From a virus (Duplodnaviria; Heunggongvirae; Uroviricota; Caudoviricetes): DNA of 32,602 bases. The DNA is taken from IMG/VR virus record IMGVR_UViG_2698536533_000006; one strand, written 5' to 3'. Shown in pieces: positions 3,684 to 21,331 of the stretch (its first letter is position 1; every line of letters begins with the position of its first letter). A program made the position numbers and the translations under genes. The notes beneath the pieces are model-generated. The model was given only the letters and a program-made list of their open reading frames with translations, did no database searches and was not told the DNA's origin.

Positions 3684-3988
3684 AATAAAAAAATAACCCG
3701 AGGGGTGACTCAGGTTATTTGAGGTTTCAGTCTCNNNNNNNNNNNNNNNNNNNNNNNNNNNNNNNNNNNNNNNNNNNNNNNNNNNNNNNNNNNNNNNNNN
3801 NNNNNNNNNNNNNNNNNNNNNNNNNNNNNNNNNNNNNNNNNNNNNNNNNNNNNNNNNNNNNNNNNNNNNNNNNNNNNNNNNNNNNNNNNNNNNNNNNNNN
3901 NNNNNNNNNNNNNNNNNNNNNNNNNNNNNNNNNNNNNNNNNNNNNNNNNNNNNNNNNNNNNNNNNNNNNNNNNNNNNNNNNNNNNNNN

Positions 3989-6914: not shown

Positions 6915-7238
6915 NNNNNNNNNNNNNNNNNNNNNNNNNNNNNNNNNNNNNNNNNNNNNNNNNNNNNNNNNNNNNNNNNNNNNNNNNNNNNNNNNNNNNN
7001 NNNNNNNNNNNNNNNNNNNNNNNNNNNNNNNNNNNNNNNNNNNNNNNNNNNNNNNNNNNNNNNNNNNNNNNNNNNNNNNNNNNNNNNNNNNNNNNNNNNN
7101 NNNNNNNNNNNNNNNNNNNNNNNNNNNNNNNNNNNNNNNNNNNNNNNNNNNNNNNNNNNNNNNNNNNNNNNNNNNNNNNNNNNNNNNNNNNNNNNNNNNN
7201 NNNNNNNNNCTGCCGGGATATCTGCGGAGGTGGCGTAA

Positions 7239-14915: not shown

Positions 14916-16504
14916 TGGGACGCATCATTGATACTGACGGAAAACCTTTCTCCTTTGACCCGGAGATGCAGAGTGCCGCGCTGGATATTCCGCAGATTGC
15001 CAGCCGTTATATTGAACATCCGGCTTCGGGTATCACCCCGAACCGGGCGGCGCAGTGCCTTCGCGGGGCTGAACGTGGCGATCTGATTGCCCAGTCCGAT
15101 CTGGCCGCTGATATTGAAGAAAAGGACACCCACCTTTTTGCGGAGCTGGGCAAGCGACGTCTTGCCATTCAGGGGGTGCCATGGAGTATTGAGCCGCCAC
15201 CGAACGCCAGCGCGAATGAGAAAAAGGACGCGGAAATGCTCGACGAATATCTGCATTCCGCAGACTGGTTTGATGCCATGCTGTTTGACGCCACGGATGC
15301 CATCCTGAAGGGCTATTCCTGCATGGAAATTGAGCACGGGATGCTCGGTAAAATGCACATCATCCGCGCCATCCGCTGGCGTGACAGCGGGCATTTCTGC
15401 CTTAACCCGGATGATTTGAGCGAACTGCGGCTGCGTGACGGCAGCCATGCCGGGGTGGCGTTTCAGCCCTTTGGCTGGATAGTGCATCAGTCGCGTTCAC
15501 GCACCGGCTACGGTGGTGCGACGGGGCTTGTCAGAACGCTTATCTGGCCGTTCATTTTCAAAAACTATTCCGTGCGCGATCTGGCGGAATTTCTGGAGGT
15601 GTACGGCCTGCCAATGAAGGTCGGGAAATACCCGTCCGGGGCAACACCGGAGCAGAAAAGTGCCCTGATGCGGGCGGTGATGGATATCGGGCGACGTACA
15701 GGCGGGATCATCCCGGCCGGGATGTCGCTGGAGTTTCAGGCGGCAGCGAACGGTCAGGCCGATCCGTTTGAAACCATGATTTCGTGGGGTGAGCGTTCCA
15801 TCTCCAAAGCAATACTCGGCGGCACGCTGACCACAGAAGCCGGAGACAAAGGCGCGCGCTCGCTGGGTGAGGTGCATAACGAGGTGCGCCGGGAAATCAG
15901 GGATTCTGATTTACGCCAGCTGGCTGCAACCCTGAACCGCGATCTGGTGTATCCGCTGTATGCCCTGAACACCGCCCACGCCATTGATATCCGTCGCCTG
16001 CCGCGTATCTGTTTCCAGACCAAAGAACCGGGGGATATCACCAAAATAGCCAGTGCGGTGATGCAACTCAGTGCGGGGATGGATATTCCTGATCCCTGGG
16101 TACGGGATCAGACCGGTATTCCACAGCCCACGCCCGGTGAAGCCATATTCCGTGTCCGTCAGAGCAGTAATGAACCGGCCATGCCTGACAGGGAAACGCT
16201 ACCGGAAAAACAGGAAAAGACAGAACAGACGGCGCTTTCAGCCCGACTGCCGGAAGCGAAAAACACGCCGCGTGATGAACTGGACGACATGGGGGACGCG
16301 GTGCCTGCCCGCCGCTTACAGGAGGCCATCGATCCGGTGCTGGAGCCGGTCATTGATGTCATCAGAACGCGGGGGCTGGCGGAGGCACTGGCAGACCTGC
16401 CTGCCCTTTACCGTGAAATGGATGATTCCCGCCTGATGACGCTGCTCAGTGATGCCATGTTTGCTGCGGAAATGAAGGGGATGCTGGATGGCTCAGGGGA
16501 TTGA
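14915..16504 (+). CDS. Portal protein (Mu gp29-like)
   Basis: 529 aa, GTG start overlapping the terminase stop (TAGTG); position after the terminase; acidic C-terminal region. Confidence 0.8.
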   Translation: MGRIIDTDGKPFSFDPEMQSAALDIPQIASRYIEHPASGITPNRAAQCLRGAERGDLIAQSDLAADIEEKDTHLFAELGKRRLAIQGVPWSIEPPPNASANEKKDAEMLDEYLHSADWFDAMLFDATDAILKGYSCMEIEHGMLGKMHIIRAIRWRDSGHFCLNPDDLSELRLRDGSHAGVAFQPFGWIVHQSRSRTGYGGATGLVRTLIWPFIFKNYSVRDLAEFLEVYGLPMKVGKYPSGATPEQKSALMRAVMDIGRRTGGIIPAGMSLEFQAAANGQADPFETMISWGERSISKAILGGTLTTEAGDKGARSLGEVHNEVRREIRDSDLRQLAATLNRDLVYPLYALNTAHAIDIRRLPRICFQTKEPGDITKIASAVMQLSAGMDIPDPWVRDQTGIPQPTPGEAIFRVRQSSNEPAMPDRETLPEKQEKTEQTALSARLPEAKNTPRDELDDMGDAVPARRLQEAIDPVLEPVIDVIRTRGLAEALADLPALYREMDDSRLMTLLSDAMFAAEMKGMLDGSGD

Positions 16505-17832
16505 TTTAGGTTATGCCGCCACGCTTCCCTCAAAAGAGACGGTGGCATACTTCCGCGCCAAAGGGGCGCATATCAGCTGGAACTGGTTCGAAACAGACGC
16601 GGATGTTCATGCCCGCTCATTCACGGCAGCAAAAACGGCACGGCTGGATGTGGTAACCACATTACAGGCCGAAGTGCAGCGGGCCATTGATGAGGGGATT
16701 TCACAGAAAGAATTTATCCGCACACTGACGCCACGCCTGCAAAAGCTGGGATGGTGGGGAAAGCAGATTGTGGTGGACAGCGACGGTAACGCGGAAGAAG
16801 TGCAGCAGGGCAGTCCCCGTCGTCTGGCGCTGATTTACAACGTGAACACCCGTGTGGCTTACAATGCCGGGCGTTACACGCAGATGATGAACAACACGGA
16901 CACGCATCCGTTCTGGCAGTATGTGGCGGTCATGGACAGCCGTACCCGCCNNNNNNNNNNNNNNNNNNNNNNNNNNNNNNNNNNNNNNNNNNNNNNNNNN
17001 NNNNNNNNNNNNNNNNNNNNNNNNNNNNNNNNNNNNNNNNNNNNNNNNNNNNNNNNNNNNNNNNNNNNNNNNNNNNNNNNNNNNNNNNNNNNNNNNNNNN
17101 NNNNNNNNNNNNNNNNNNNNNNNNNNNNNNNNNNNNNNNNNNNNNNNNNNNNNNNNNNNNNNNNNNNNNNNNNNNNNNNNNNNNNNNNNNNNNNNNNNNN
17201 NNNNNGGCGCCAGAACCATGACACCGGATGTGGGCTGGTCATATAACCCCGGCTCGGCAGCGTTCGGCACAGACCAGGCGCTGATCCGCAAACTGATCGA
17301 GGTGAAAAGCCCGGCGTTACGGGAAATGGTGGTTCAGGAGATGAACAACAGCCCGGAGCGGCAGCTGGCGTTCCGCATCTGGGCAAAAAACATCATGCAG
17401 ACCCGGCGAGGTGGTAACGATATCCGCACGCTGGGCTTTATGACTGAAAGCATTGCGCAGGCAGTGGAAAGCCGGACGGGAACGCCACCGGCCCGCCTGC
17501 TGGCGATGAGCGGTAAAAATGTGCTCCATGCGGACAGTGTGAAACATCAGAATGACGGCATCGCTCTGACGCCGGAGGACTTCGGGCGCTTACCGGCAAT
17601 GCTGGCAAGGCCAAAAGCGGTACTGTGGGACAAACGGCACAACAATCTGATGTATATCGTGGAAAATCAGGATGGCAGTGTGCAGATTGCCGTTAATGCA
17701 CCGTACAGTCTGAAACGTCAGCCCGACAAACTGGATGTGATTGTGAATGCTTACCGGGTTATCAATATGGATAAGCTGAAATCGGATATCCGGGGCGGAA
17801 TGCTTGAGGTGCTGGAAGGACAAATTGATTAA
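16488..17832 (+). CDS. Head morphogenesis protein (Mu F / gp30-like), interrupted by N run 16951-17205
   Basis: Open frames on both sides of the gap with combined size near Mu gp30. Frame continuity across the gap cannot be verified. Confidence 0.6.
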
Positions 17833-17916
17833 CGGTCAGTGGCGGGGGTCGAACCCGCATACATGATCCACCCGGAGGCAGGCACCGACTTTACCAGTTA
17901 AGCGTACACTGACCGC
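17833..17916 (-). other. tRNA-like structured element (9-bp closing stem plus T-arm-like hairpin); not a canonical tRNA
   Basis: CGGTCAGTG (17833-17841) pairs with CACTGACCG (17908-17916); inner hairpin GCGGG-GGTCGAA-CCCGC reads GCGGGTTCGACCCCCGC on the minus strand. Confidence 0.3.
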
Positions 17917-17953
17917 CTGTTTATTTTATATTCATCCTTTATGCGGAGGCAAT

Positions 17954-18427
17954 ATGTCATCCATTGATGCAGCTGTCGTTGTTGACGTTACGCGTCTCCA
18001 GCGAGTGTTTGCCCGGCTTCAGTTTGTGGGCGGCGGAAAAGACCTGGCCCGCAGTGTGGCGGCGAGTCTTCTGTCATCGTCAGAAATGGCGTTTGAGCAG
18101 GAAAAAGAGCCGGATGGTGAACGCTGGCATGACTGGTCAGATCCTTACCGTGAGTGGCGTACCCGTAAGGGATACACGCCCGGCAAAATCCTGACGCTGA
18201 ACGGCGATCTGGCCCGCCGCCTGACCACGGATTATGGCGATACCTGGGCGCTGATTGGATCAAATGAACCTTATGCAGCCATTCATCAGTGGGGTGGCCT
18301 GCCTGGTATGCCACCGGGACCGGCGGCCATTGGCGCACGTCCGTATATGGGCTTTGATCAGGTGGCAGAACAGGAGATCATGGACGAAATCAGAAAACGC
18401 TTTAAAAAGGCCACAGAAACGCCGTAA
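17954..18427 (+). CDS. Virion morphogenesis protein (Mu G-like)
   Basis: 157 aa; RBS GGAGG; size and position match Mu G. Confidence 0.7.
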   Translation: MSSIDAAVVVDVTRLQRVFARLQFVGGGKDLARSVAASLLSSSEMAFEQEKEPDGERWHDWSDPYREWRTRKGYTPGKILTLNGDLARRLTTDYGDTWALIGSNEPYAAIHQWGGLPGMPPGPAAIGARPYMGFDQVAEQEIMDEIRKRFKKATETP

Positions 18428-18604
18428 TGGTTTAAGGTATGCAAACGTATTACCTTACCCCCTTCAGGCGCGTGTCGTGATTTTCTAACCTGTATTTAAC
18501 GGGCTTTAAAATCTGCGTGAAGCGCCTTTCTCATTCCCCCCCTGTCAGCACTTTCTGAAGTCCCGCAAAACCAGCCCCAAAAATACCCGGCTTATGCTGC
18601 CGGT
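18428..18604 (+). promoter_or_regulatory. Non-coding spacer between G and I; candidate late promoter (position of Mu P-I)
   Basis: 177 bp without a credible ORF in an otherwise coupled operon. Confidence 0.3.
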
Positions 18605-19738
18605 ATGAAGACAGAAAATCACCCAAAAGACGCAAATCGCCCCTCCGGTTTAGCCGTGCTTTCAGCTTCGCTGACTGCATCCGGCGACGGATGGTGTCAG
18701 TTACTGCCAGCCGGTCGGGTAAAGGCCCGTGACGGTCGCCCGGAAAAACCGACTGAAGGCTGGCTGATTAACGAATCCGCCTGTAACCGGATGAAAGCCG
18801 GGCTTTCCGCCCTGCATCAGCCGTTACTGATTGATTATGACCATCACTCCGTGAATGCGCAGAAAAACGGATTCAAGGCTATTGCTGCAGGATGGGTTAA
18901 GCCGGAAAACATCGAATGGCGTGAGGGTCAGGGGATTTTCATTAAACCTGAATGGACACCACAGGCACAAAAACATATTGATGACCGTGAATATGCCTAT
19001 CTGTCTGCATATATGCATTATTTCGCTGACACCGGGGAACCCTACCTGTTGCGCATGGCTTCCCTGACGAATGATCCGGGTATTACGGGTATGAACCCTG
19101 TCGCGGCACTCAGTGCTGATGATCTCTATGTCGTTTCCCCTTCTCAGGAGCAATCCCCCATGAATGAGCAATTACGCCAGTTGCTGACGGCGCTCGGTCT
19201 GACCGTGGCTGACGGTGACGAATTTACACCGGAACTGGGCACGGCGGCGCTGTCTGCCCTTACCGGGATCAAAACCCGTGCGGATGCGCACGACACCCTG
19301 AAAACGCAGGTTGCCAGCCTGTCGGCAGAACTGGAAACCGCAAAAGGCACACCAACTGGCGGCACTATTGATCTGACGAAATATGTGCCCGTTGAGACGT
19401 ATAACGCCCTGCGTACCGAATATGCCGCGCTGTCGGCACAACACGGCAGCACCACGCTGGAGCAGTTGCTGGATAAGGCCGAGTCCGAAGGACGCATTTT
19501 CAAAAGCGAACGCGGATACATGGAAGGACTCGGACAACAGATTGGCGTCGCGGCACTTTCTGCACAGCTTGACGCCCGCCAGCCGGTTGCGGCTCTGACC
19601 ACTCTTCAGACCGACACCGTAACCGTGCCGGATAAAAAGACCGCCACCGCTGTGCTGTCGGCTGAAGATATCGCCGCCGCACGTCTGTTGGGTAAAACCG
19701 AAGCCGAGTTCCTGAAAATGAAAGAGGAAATGCAATAA
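18605..19738 (+). CDS. Head maturation protease / scaffold protein (Mu I-like)
   Basis: 377 aa, immediately upstream of the major capsid gene; Ala/Leu-rich helical C-terminal half as expected for a scaffold domain. Confidence 0.75.
   Translation: MKTENHPKDANRPSGLAVLSASLTASGDGWCQLLPAGRVKARDGRPEKPTEGWLINESACNRMKAGLSALHQPLLIDYDHHSVNAQKNGFKAIAAGWVKPENIEWREGQGIFIKPEWTPQAQKHIDDREYAYLSAYMHYFADTGEPYLLRMASLTNDPGITGMNPVAALSADDLYVVSPSQEQSPMNEQLRQLLTALGLTVADGDEFTPELGTAALSALTGIKTRADAHDTLKTQVASLSAELETAKGTPTGGTIDLTKYVPVETYNALRTEYAALSAQHGSTTLEQLLDKAESEGRIFKSERGYMEGLGQQIGVAALSAQLDARQPVAALTTLQTDTVTVPDKKTATAVLSAEDIAAARLLGKTEAEFLKMKEEMQ
19160..19738 (+). CDS. Possible nested in-frame scaffold protein (Mu Z-like) from an internal start in gene I
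   Basis: Internal ATG at 19160, in frame, preceded by AGGAG at 9-nt spacing; would encode the C-terminal 192 aa. Confidence 0.4.
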   Translation: MNEQLRQLLTALGLTVADGDEFTPELGTAALSALTGIKTRADAHDTLKTQVASLSAELETAKGTPTGGTIDLTKYVPVETYNALRTEYAALSAQHGSTTLEQLLDKAESEGRIFKSERGYMEGLGQQIGVAALSAQLDARQPVAALTTLQTDTVTVPDKKTATAVLSAEDIAAARLLGKTEAEFLKMKEEMQ

Positions 19739-21058: not shown

Positions 21059-21331
21059 NNNNNNNNNNNNNNNNNNNNNNNNNNNNNNNNNNNNNNNNNN
21101 NNNNNNNNNNNNNNNNNNNNNNNNNNNNNNNNNNNNNNNNNNNNNNNNNNNNNNNNNNNNNNNNNNNNNNNNNNNNNNNNNNNNNNNNNNNNNNNNNNNN
21201 NNNNNNNNNNNNNNNNNNNNNNNNNNNNNNNNNNNNNNNNNNNNNNNNNNNNNNNNNNNNNNNNNNNNNNNNNNNNNNNNNNNNNNNNNNNNNNNNNNNN
21301 NNNNNNNNNNNNNNNNNNNNNNNNNNNNNNN

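Follow-up and report, generated by a model that had tools for sequence, protein, structure and literature searches.

A conserved tRNA-shaped RNA gene without an anticodon arm between head genes F and G of a Mu-like Escherichia coli prophage

The stretch of DNA analyzed here (32,602 nt, hereafter the window) is a Mu-like prophage of E. coli. Positions 17400-18400 are 100% identical to the prophage of E. coli strain 600029, and five further aligned blocks of the window are 99-100% identical to it. Annotated genes of the strain 600029 prophage encode a transposase, Gam, Mor, a portal protein, F (head morphogenesis), G (virion morphogenesis), a protease, the major head protein, tail proteins, a Gin-like recombinase, Com, and Mom. 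In that strain, sgrR is split by the prophage into two annotated fragments (L036 3143-4216 and 42852-43001), and this location fits random Mu-type transposition into a host gene. Gene F of the window appears to be frameshifted, with two ORFs at 16488-17246 and 16921-17832. This frameshift is spurious and comes from a stretch masked with N (16951-17205), the length of which differs from that of the real sequence; F is unbroken from 16488 to 17832, with the N run translating to unknown residues. Masking probably also explains four other segments of the window (approximately 1330-1457, 3735-3988, 6915-7209, and 21059-21331), for which no alignment to the prophage of strain 600029 was obtained.

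F ends with TAA at 17830-17832 and G starts with ATG at 17954, and the gap between them is occupied by a tRNA-shaped element encoded on the minus strand (Table 1). In phage Mu, F and G overlap, leaving no spacer at this junction, and the element is absent; L067 likewise has no tRNA-shaped element. The only other non-coding gap in the late region of the window lies between G and I (18428-18604), at the position of the strong gyrase site of Mu, and two terminator-like hairpins are found on the minus strand at its right edge (18587-18645). The element was also considered as an equivalent of the strong gyrase site and rejected in that role, as the Mu site is in the G-I gap and the F and G genes of Mu overlap.

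Table 1. Components of the tRNA-shaped RNA gene and of its putative promoter, in window coordinates.
Feature	Position	Strand	Basis
Whole tRNA-shaped RNA gene, positions -4 to 76	17831..17917	-	Covariance model R1, 95.6 bits; RF00005; RefSeq
Closing (acceptor) helix, 5′ strand, GGCG + GUCAGUG	17907..17917	-	Sequence, alignment
D-arm, GCUU AACUGGUA AAGU, one extra C before it after U8-A9	17888..17904	-	Rfam alignment
Elongated arm without anticodon	17863..17885	-	Covariation of basal pairs, folds
Variable loop, GUAU, 4 nt, last U can pair with A15 (Levitt pair)	17859..17862	-	U48/A15 invariance
T-arm, GCGGG UUCGACC CCCGC	17842..17858	-	Sequence, Rfam alignment
Closing helix, 3′ strand, CACUGAC + CGUU	17831..17841	-	Sequence, alignment
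-10 box, TAAAAT, sigma-70-type promoter of the RNA gene	17923..17928	-	Promoter scan, conservation
-35 box, TTGCCT, 18-nt spacer	17947..17952	-	Promoter scan

A sequence-only reading of the window had described a tRNA-like structured element in this gap, with a 9-bp stem enclosing about 84 nt and a near-consensus T-arm placed next to it on the minus strand. The stem is present (CGGTCAGTG at 17833-17841 and CACTGACCG at 17907-17915), but the enclosed sequence is 65 nt long (17842-17906). The T-arm does adjoin the first stem strand, with 17842-17858 reading GCGGG-TTCGACC-CCCGC on the minus strand. That neither a D-arm nor an anticodon arm could be folded was borne out for the anticodon arm, which the Rfam tRNA alignment leaves unaligned, but not for the D-arm: GCUU-AACUGGUA-AAGU (17888-17903) folds and is aligned by Rfam. 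Of the span of 17833-17953 proposed for the element, 17918-17953 is outside the RNA and holds its predicted promoter and the ribosome-binding site of G. At its other end, the RNA shares the last bases of its closing helix (3′ strand) with the stop codon of F on the opposite strand. The elongated arm of the window copy consists of a basal helix (GUG/CAU), an internal loop (C vs. AU), and a distal helix (CUGCC/GGUGG) capped by a UCCG tetraloop at 17873-17876.

Rfam family RF00005 (tRNA) matches 17834-17913, on the minus strand only, with 31 bits against a gathering score of 29 (E 9.4e-5, 351-nt local search). This marginal match was seen only in the small, less filtered search of the locus, and a search of the whole window at gathering thresholds reported nothing. 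The alignment covers the acceptor stem, U8-A9, D-arm, variable loop, and T-arm, and leaves 24 nt unaligned where 18 model positions including the anticodon arm belong. Relatives of the element scored 31.4, 26.9, and 24.5 bits against the same model. ARAGORN found no tRNA or tmRNA in the window and no tRNA in 10 related loci. A tmRNA (a tRNA-like domain with a tag reading frame) also had no Rfam match at threshold, and the other families of Rfam 15 gave only chance-level matches in the locus (E up to 10) and in six related loci (E up to 1). RefSeq annotates the same 80 nt as "tRNA-OTHER" in many E. coli genomes, including the identical locus of strain 600029. In strain TOE17 (L002), the one A58C record inspected for its annotation, this single T-loop change coincides with loss of the tRNA-OTHER label. 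No canonical tRNA with these D- and T-arm sequences was found by an exact-pattern scan of one genome from each of 185,579 species, and a single-sequence fold of the window copy is only modestly more stable than those of shuffled sequences (z = -1.9). The ARAGORN, Rfam, and RefSeq results agree with the original description of a tRNA-like element on the minus strand that is not a canonical tRNA.

Of 5,426 complete E. coli genomes, 227 carry the element, O157:H7 strains among them, and in nearly all of these it sits in the F-G gap. Further copies were collected by pattern scans and searches with the G protein, drawing on IMG/VR prophage contigs, gut and environmental metagenomes, and Citrobacter braakii, for a set of 26 distinct sequences. 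Twenty of these, from Mu-like prophages of E. coli and Citrobacter, metagenomes, and satellite-like islands, were placed in one alignment (A1). Several copies are irregular. A58C (TTCGACC to TTCGCCC) recurs both in prophage copies (L002 and L003 2996-3077) and in satellite copies (the second copy of L085). A metagenomic copy at L088 642-719 has a 3′ end (…CCGTCGGCACCA) that does not pair with the 5′ strand and resembles a true tRNA 3′ end, and is possibly an integration junction. In L076, also metagenomic, a second, more degenerate copy (119-198) is found, and the two copies flank an F-like fragment.

Comparative evidence that the structure exceeds chance is decisive. In A1, 92% of cells in the predicted cloverleaf are paired, compared to 39-52% when the partners are slid by one to three columns. 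Double-sided (compensatory) changes occur in 13 of the 23 pairs, and the observed covariation score was reached by none of 500 shuffles. Each of the four helices has compensatory changes, that at the base of the arm among them. In the acceptor stem, with its seven pairs, pairing is seen in 139 of 140 cells, and the T-stem is 100% paired, with compensatory changes from C-G to U-A and from G-C to A-U. A covariance model built from A1 (R1) scores the window copy at 95.6 bits (E 1.3e-21), and at E values up to 1 it did not match the genuine tRNA-Ile gene of L072. Both observations proposed as able to refute the element, namely no covariance-model hit and no conservation of paired positions in related phages, can thus be answered: a hit is present, and the element and its paired positions are conserved in related phages.

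The same pairs indicate which strand is folded. Among the 21 pairs from -2:74 inward, G·U outnumbers A·C by 41 to 1, pointing to the minus strand as the one that folds. This bears directly on an alternative in which the sequence serves instead on the plus strand, as a structure of the late mRNA affecting its processing or stability, or as a DNA-level site such as a recombination linker or a protein-binding site near the prophage center. Its location at a module boundary where recombinants occur, 0.5 kb from the gap that corresponds to the strong gyrase site of Mu, would suit such a role. However, pairing works on the minus strand only, the tRNA loop consensus (UUCGA, and GG of the D-loop) reads correctly on that strand only, and Mu has no spacer here at all, its F and G genes overlapping. 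This alternative is therefore scarcely credible, and the evidence points to a discrete RNA gene in preference to a signal within the late mRNA. The earlier suggestions that the element might act as an RNA processing site or a protein-binding structure do describe possible roles for it.

Sequence conservation is concentrated where a tRNA would need it. U8, A14, A15-U48, G18G19, and A21 are invariant in 20/20 variants, as is U54-U55-C56 of the T-loop. The T-loop reads UUCGACC in 15/20; the other five vary at positions 57-59, four of them being A58C or G57A. A tRNA needs these core, D-arm, and T-arm nucleotides to form its L-shaped core and keep its elbow intact, although A58C should weaken the elbow. 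Between phages that share only 60-70% identity in the adjoining F and G DNA, the D- and T-arms are 87-100% identical, and the element is more conserved than neighboring coding DNA in Citrobacter as well. The elongated arm can also be highly similar, with 96% identity between divergent phages, which could reflect recent cassette exchange instead of selection. A mosaic junction was observed at the tRNA-like gene in L059 (IMG/VR contig 2675903650_000009) upon comparison with window positions 17500-18250: G is 96% identical, identity falls to 70% at the end of F, and the arm of the tRNA-like gene belongs to the other class. The conserved RNA gene may act as a recombination joint between head-gene modules.

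These data argue against the proposal that the element is a passive tRNA remnant. In its fullest form, this explanation holds that a tRNA pseudogene is decaying and seems conserved owing to close kinship of the prophages or to exchange by recombination. It would account for the destroyed anticodon arm, the rejection by ARAGORN, the position at a mosaic junction (with the L059 values for G and F), and the existence of degenerate copies, which include A58C in L002, the L088 copy, the second L076 copy, and the first copy of an array described below, which has a 4-nt insertion. Neutral decay should leave no compensation and conservation no higher than in the flanks, whereas all four helices have compensatory changes and the element is conserved above flanking coding DNA, both among phages 60-70% identical to each other and in Citrobacter. 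Promoter geometry is also maintained, as are arrays of the element in satellites. A decaying pseudogene is thus quite unlikely, and the covarying stems, the D- and T-arms conserved above their flanks, and a conserved predicted promoter of its own favor a maintained gene. Identification of 17831-17917 (minus strand) as a conserved RNA gene is well supported.

The RNA departs from a decoding tRNA at both of its functional ends. A tRNA has an unpaired base 73 followed by a CCA end. In the element, the pair -1:73 is formed in 20/20 variants by four pair types (G-C, U-A, A-U, and G·U), the pair -2:74 is formed in 17/20 with covariation, and many copies have the extra pairs -3:75 and -4:76, both of which are G·U in the window. 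The closing helix is consequently 9-11 bp long, with no unpaired discriminator and no encoded CCA. Every member also has one additional C between A9 and the D-stem. At the opposite end, the anticodon arm is replaced by a bulged arm of 8-12 bp which folds predict to be usually capped by a tetraloop, in place of the 5-bp stem and 7-nt loop in register (U33, anticodon, purine 37) that decoding demands. The sole 7-nt arm loop, in L068, is on an arm three bp too long. The basal arm helix has 3 bp that covary between the two main classes (U-A to C-G, G-C to A-U). Beyond it come a bulge or small internal loop and then a distal helix that is variable in length and sequence; this distal part of the arm is hypervariable between lineages. 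Most arms have four-base loops (UCCG, UUCG, UCAG, UCAA, and GUAC among the 20 aligned variants, UAAC and GUAA in two copies outside the alignment), while several class-2 arms have loops of 5 to 14 nt. Five different loops occur on one conserved arm stem (ACCC/GGGU), indicating that the stem, and not the loop sequence, is selected. From these features, the RNA is predicted to be incapable of decoding.

Charging with an amino acid also appears unlikely, because base 73 is C, A, or U and the pairs 2:71 to 4:69 vary freely. One feature does run the other way. G1-C72 is invariant while the neighboring pairs covary, which suggests RNase P-type recognition; processing by RNase P, possibly with a freed 3′ end, would reopen the possibility of charging. 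According to this alternative, RNase P would cut at G1, the trailer would be trimmed, CCA would be added, and a synthetase blind to the anticodon would charge the RNA, which would then act as an amino-acid donor or sink. The invariant G1-C72 and the complete T-arm, D-arm, and core are in its favor, as is G-1:C73, found in 12/20 variants and resembling an acceptor feature of tRNA-His. A histidine-like identity was ruled out, given that this pair is U-A, A-U, or G·U in the remaining 8/20. More generally, the variable base 73 and pairs 2:71 to 4:69 leave no conserved synthetase identity set, covariation keeps -1:73 and -2:74 paired, contrary to a free acceptor end, and no CCA is encoded. A chargeable RNA is therefore very unlikely.

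Upstream of the RNA gene, a promoter scan identified a consensus match on the minus strand, TTGCCT-18 nt-TAAAAT (17952-17923). The TAAAAT box is conserved in nearly all prophage variants. The -35 box overlaps the plus-strand Shine-Dalgarno region of G (GGAGG, 17945-17949), and its conservation may be explained by the ribosome-binding site of G no less than by the promoter. Between the -10 box and G1 lie 8, 9, 10, or 14 nt, in copies with 2, 4, 4, and 7 extra closing pairs, respectively. Transcription usually starts 7 nt after the -10 box. Because this spacing tracks the number of extra pairs, counting 7 nt on from the -10 box leads in each case to the outermost base of the helix or the one next to it, and the transcription start is accordingly predicted at the base of the closing helix. 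Such an RNA would begin 38 nt before the start codon of G and extend into F. Promoter geometry thus supports a sigma-70-type transcription unit belonging to the RNA gene itself, antisense to the late operon. No terminator was found by a scan of the 500 nt following the prophage RNA gene, so the 3′ end would be made by processing or be undefined.

The element also occurs in a second genetic context. Outside Mu-like phages, the copy closest to that of the window (85% identity) comes from E. coli JNEC-KY179, where it is annotated as tRNA-Tyr. An 8-kb island adjoining tRNA-Ile (L072 1507-9668) ends, on its far side, with this copy and another in tandem, and has genes for an integrase, an Ash-family protein, an Icd-like protein, a RepA-family helicase, SSB, PerC, and Mor, a content that suggests a satellite-like island. 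The tRNA-Tyr assignment of this copy was examined and rejected: its arm is a perfect 16-nt palindrome, CAGCCUGUACAGGCUG, forming a 6-bp stem with a 4-nt loop, and there is no anticodon arm in register. Of the two labels in use in databases, tRNA-OTHER and tRNA-Tyr, the latter is probably wrong. In metagenomic and genomic relatives, two or three copies form an array that combines different arm types, and such arrays occur in 14 complete E. coli genomes. The first array copy has its 4-nt insertion in the acceptor strand. Upstream of the array, a promoter-like site (TTTACC-17 nt-TACTAT) and a block of GTGAAA-type repeats were read by eye. Positions 1-1500 of L091 were likewise read as part of a satellite-like island with a terminal array; there, about seven such repeats with a spacing of about 10-11 nt lie at approximately 985-1055, between the satellite Mor gene and the array, and could be origin iterons or regulator binding sites. 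A terminator-like hairpin after the array was seen by eye only and was not listed by the scan.

The island copies are antisense to no gene, which suggests that the RNA acts in trans. By contrast, the orientation of the prophage copies invites an explanation in which the RNA is a cis-antisense regulator of the F 3′ end and the F-G junction, with the tRNA-like fold as a 5′ stabilizing or processing module. The gene does read against the late operon, no terminator was found in the 500 nt after it, and small phage regulatory RNAs processed by RNase P, such as C4 of P1 and CI of P4, provide a precedent. However, antisense action would have no use for invariant tRNA tertiary nucleotides, a tight cloverleaf is a poor pairing partner, the RNA has no Rfam match to C4 or any other regulatory RNA family, and the satellite-island copies have no gene opposite them. 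Cis-antisense regulation is for these reasons unlikely. Pairing of the arm with a target in trans was also considered; nothing complementary to the arm was found elsewhere in the window beyond chance-level matches of 9-11 nt, where by our own estimate about 0.3 eleven-mers are expected by chance.

An insertion at a gene boundary that is absent from Mu and L067 and has a conserved promoter-like site has the features of a moron. Morons usually have a terminator as well, and a scan after the prophage copy found none. The reading we prefer is that the element is a small, self-contained moron inserted between head genes F and G and encoding a tRNA-shaped non-coding RNA. This RNA keeps the D-arm, T-arm, and core nucleotides needed for the L-shape and elbow. 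It would imitate the tRNA body in trans, and would bind a shape-recognizing tRNA partner protein so as to titrate or block it. Candidate targets are nucleases or toxins that attack tRNA, or enzymes that process it. The hypervariable distal arm might tune specificity, or might drift under a constraint to stay closed. Selection preserves the elbow and core, making mimicry of the tRNA body the most economical role, and accessory carriage by both phages and satellites fits an anti-defense or host-manipulation function. On the other hand, a decoy would compete with a very large pool of tRNA, and the common A58C variant (L002 type), with its presumably weakened elbow, speaks against a mimic in which the elbow must be intact. 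Taken as a whole, the statement that a separately promoted, tRNA-shaped moron RNA acts in trans as a tRNA-body mimic or decoy has, in our judgment, an even chance of being correct. Our confidence is far higher in the identity of the RNA gene than in the decoy mechanism, which is a guess. A broader and doubtful extension would see the closed-end, anticodon-less mimics of Mu-like phages and satellite-like islands as RNAs that inhibit or decoy immunity enzymes or toxins directed at tRNA, or another protein that reads the tRNA elbow, with the hypervariable capped arm and multi-type arrays as the footprint of an arms race.

The element is a real, conserved, and so far uncharacterized tRNA-like RNA family; full-text searches of the literature found no paper on it. 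The family is compact, strongly conserved, widespread in pathogenic E. coli, and common to transposable phages and satellite-like islands. To our knowledge, non-decoding tRNA-shaped RNAs are rare in bacteria, and each one characterized has revealed a new use of the tRNA fold. Should the RNA prove to be a decoy for proteins that recognize the shape of tRNA, the present view of phage-host conflict over tRNA would gain an RNA-based counter-measure. At the least, annotators gain a defined family with a covariance model, and miscounted tRNA genes can be corrected.

Among known RNAs, canonical tRNA (RF00005) shares with the element a 7-bp acceptor stem with G1-C72, U8, a D-arm with A14, G18G19, and A21, a 4-nt variable loop with A15-U48, and a 5-bp T-stem with a UUCGACC loop. 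Unlike canonical tRNA, the element has no 5-bp stem with a 7-nt anticodon loop, its positions 73 and 74 are paired with -1 and -2, it encodes no CCA, it has an extra nucleotide between position 9 and the D-stem, and RefSeq gives it no isotype. In a functional sense, the element falls outside the tRNA family, as neither an anticodon arm nor a free NCCA end was found when looked for. By analogy, it probably works most like the non-decoding tRNA mimics, such as pseudo-tRNAs and the tRNA-like module of bacterial Y RNA. The pseudo-tRNA "tRNA-Other" of Bacillus cereus is also tRNA-shaped, has no amino-acid assignment, and is presumed to have a role outside translation. However, its anticodon arm is normal, its acceptor end is free, and it can accept an amino acid, whereas the element has neither structure, and the two have no sequence relationship. 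The tRNA-mimic domain of the bacterial Y RNA YrlA is likewise a non-coding mimic of the D/T elbow that does not decode. In YrlA, both ends of the RNA are located in the stem replacing the anticodon arm and the acceptor-like stem is capped, the opposite topology to that of the element; YrlA works with Ro60/Rsr, and no Rsr gene is present in the prophage annotation. C4 of P1 and CI of P4 are small structured RNAs of temperate coliphages and satellites, matured by RNase P and acting in trans via exposed loops. The element resembles them as a small structured RNA of such hosts, its islands having Icd-like and Ash-family genes, and differs in its mostly four-base arm loops, in that no target was found in the window, and in having no Rfam match to them. 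Finally, engineered tRNA scaffolds join a tRNA body to an extended anticodon stem with an arbitrary capped insert and are highly stable in E. coli. The intact tRNA body and elongated capped arm of the element follow the same plan; while the scaffolds are artificial and have a normal acceptor end, the element is natural and its acceptor helix is closed.
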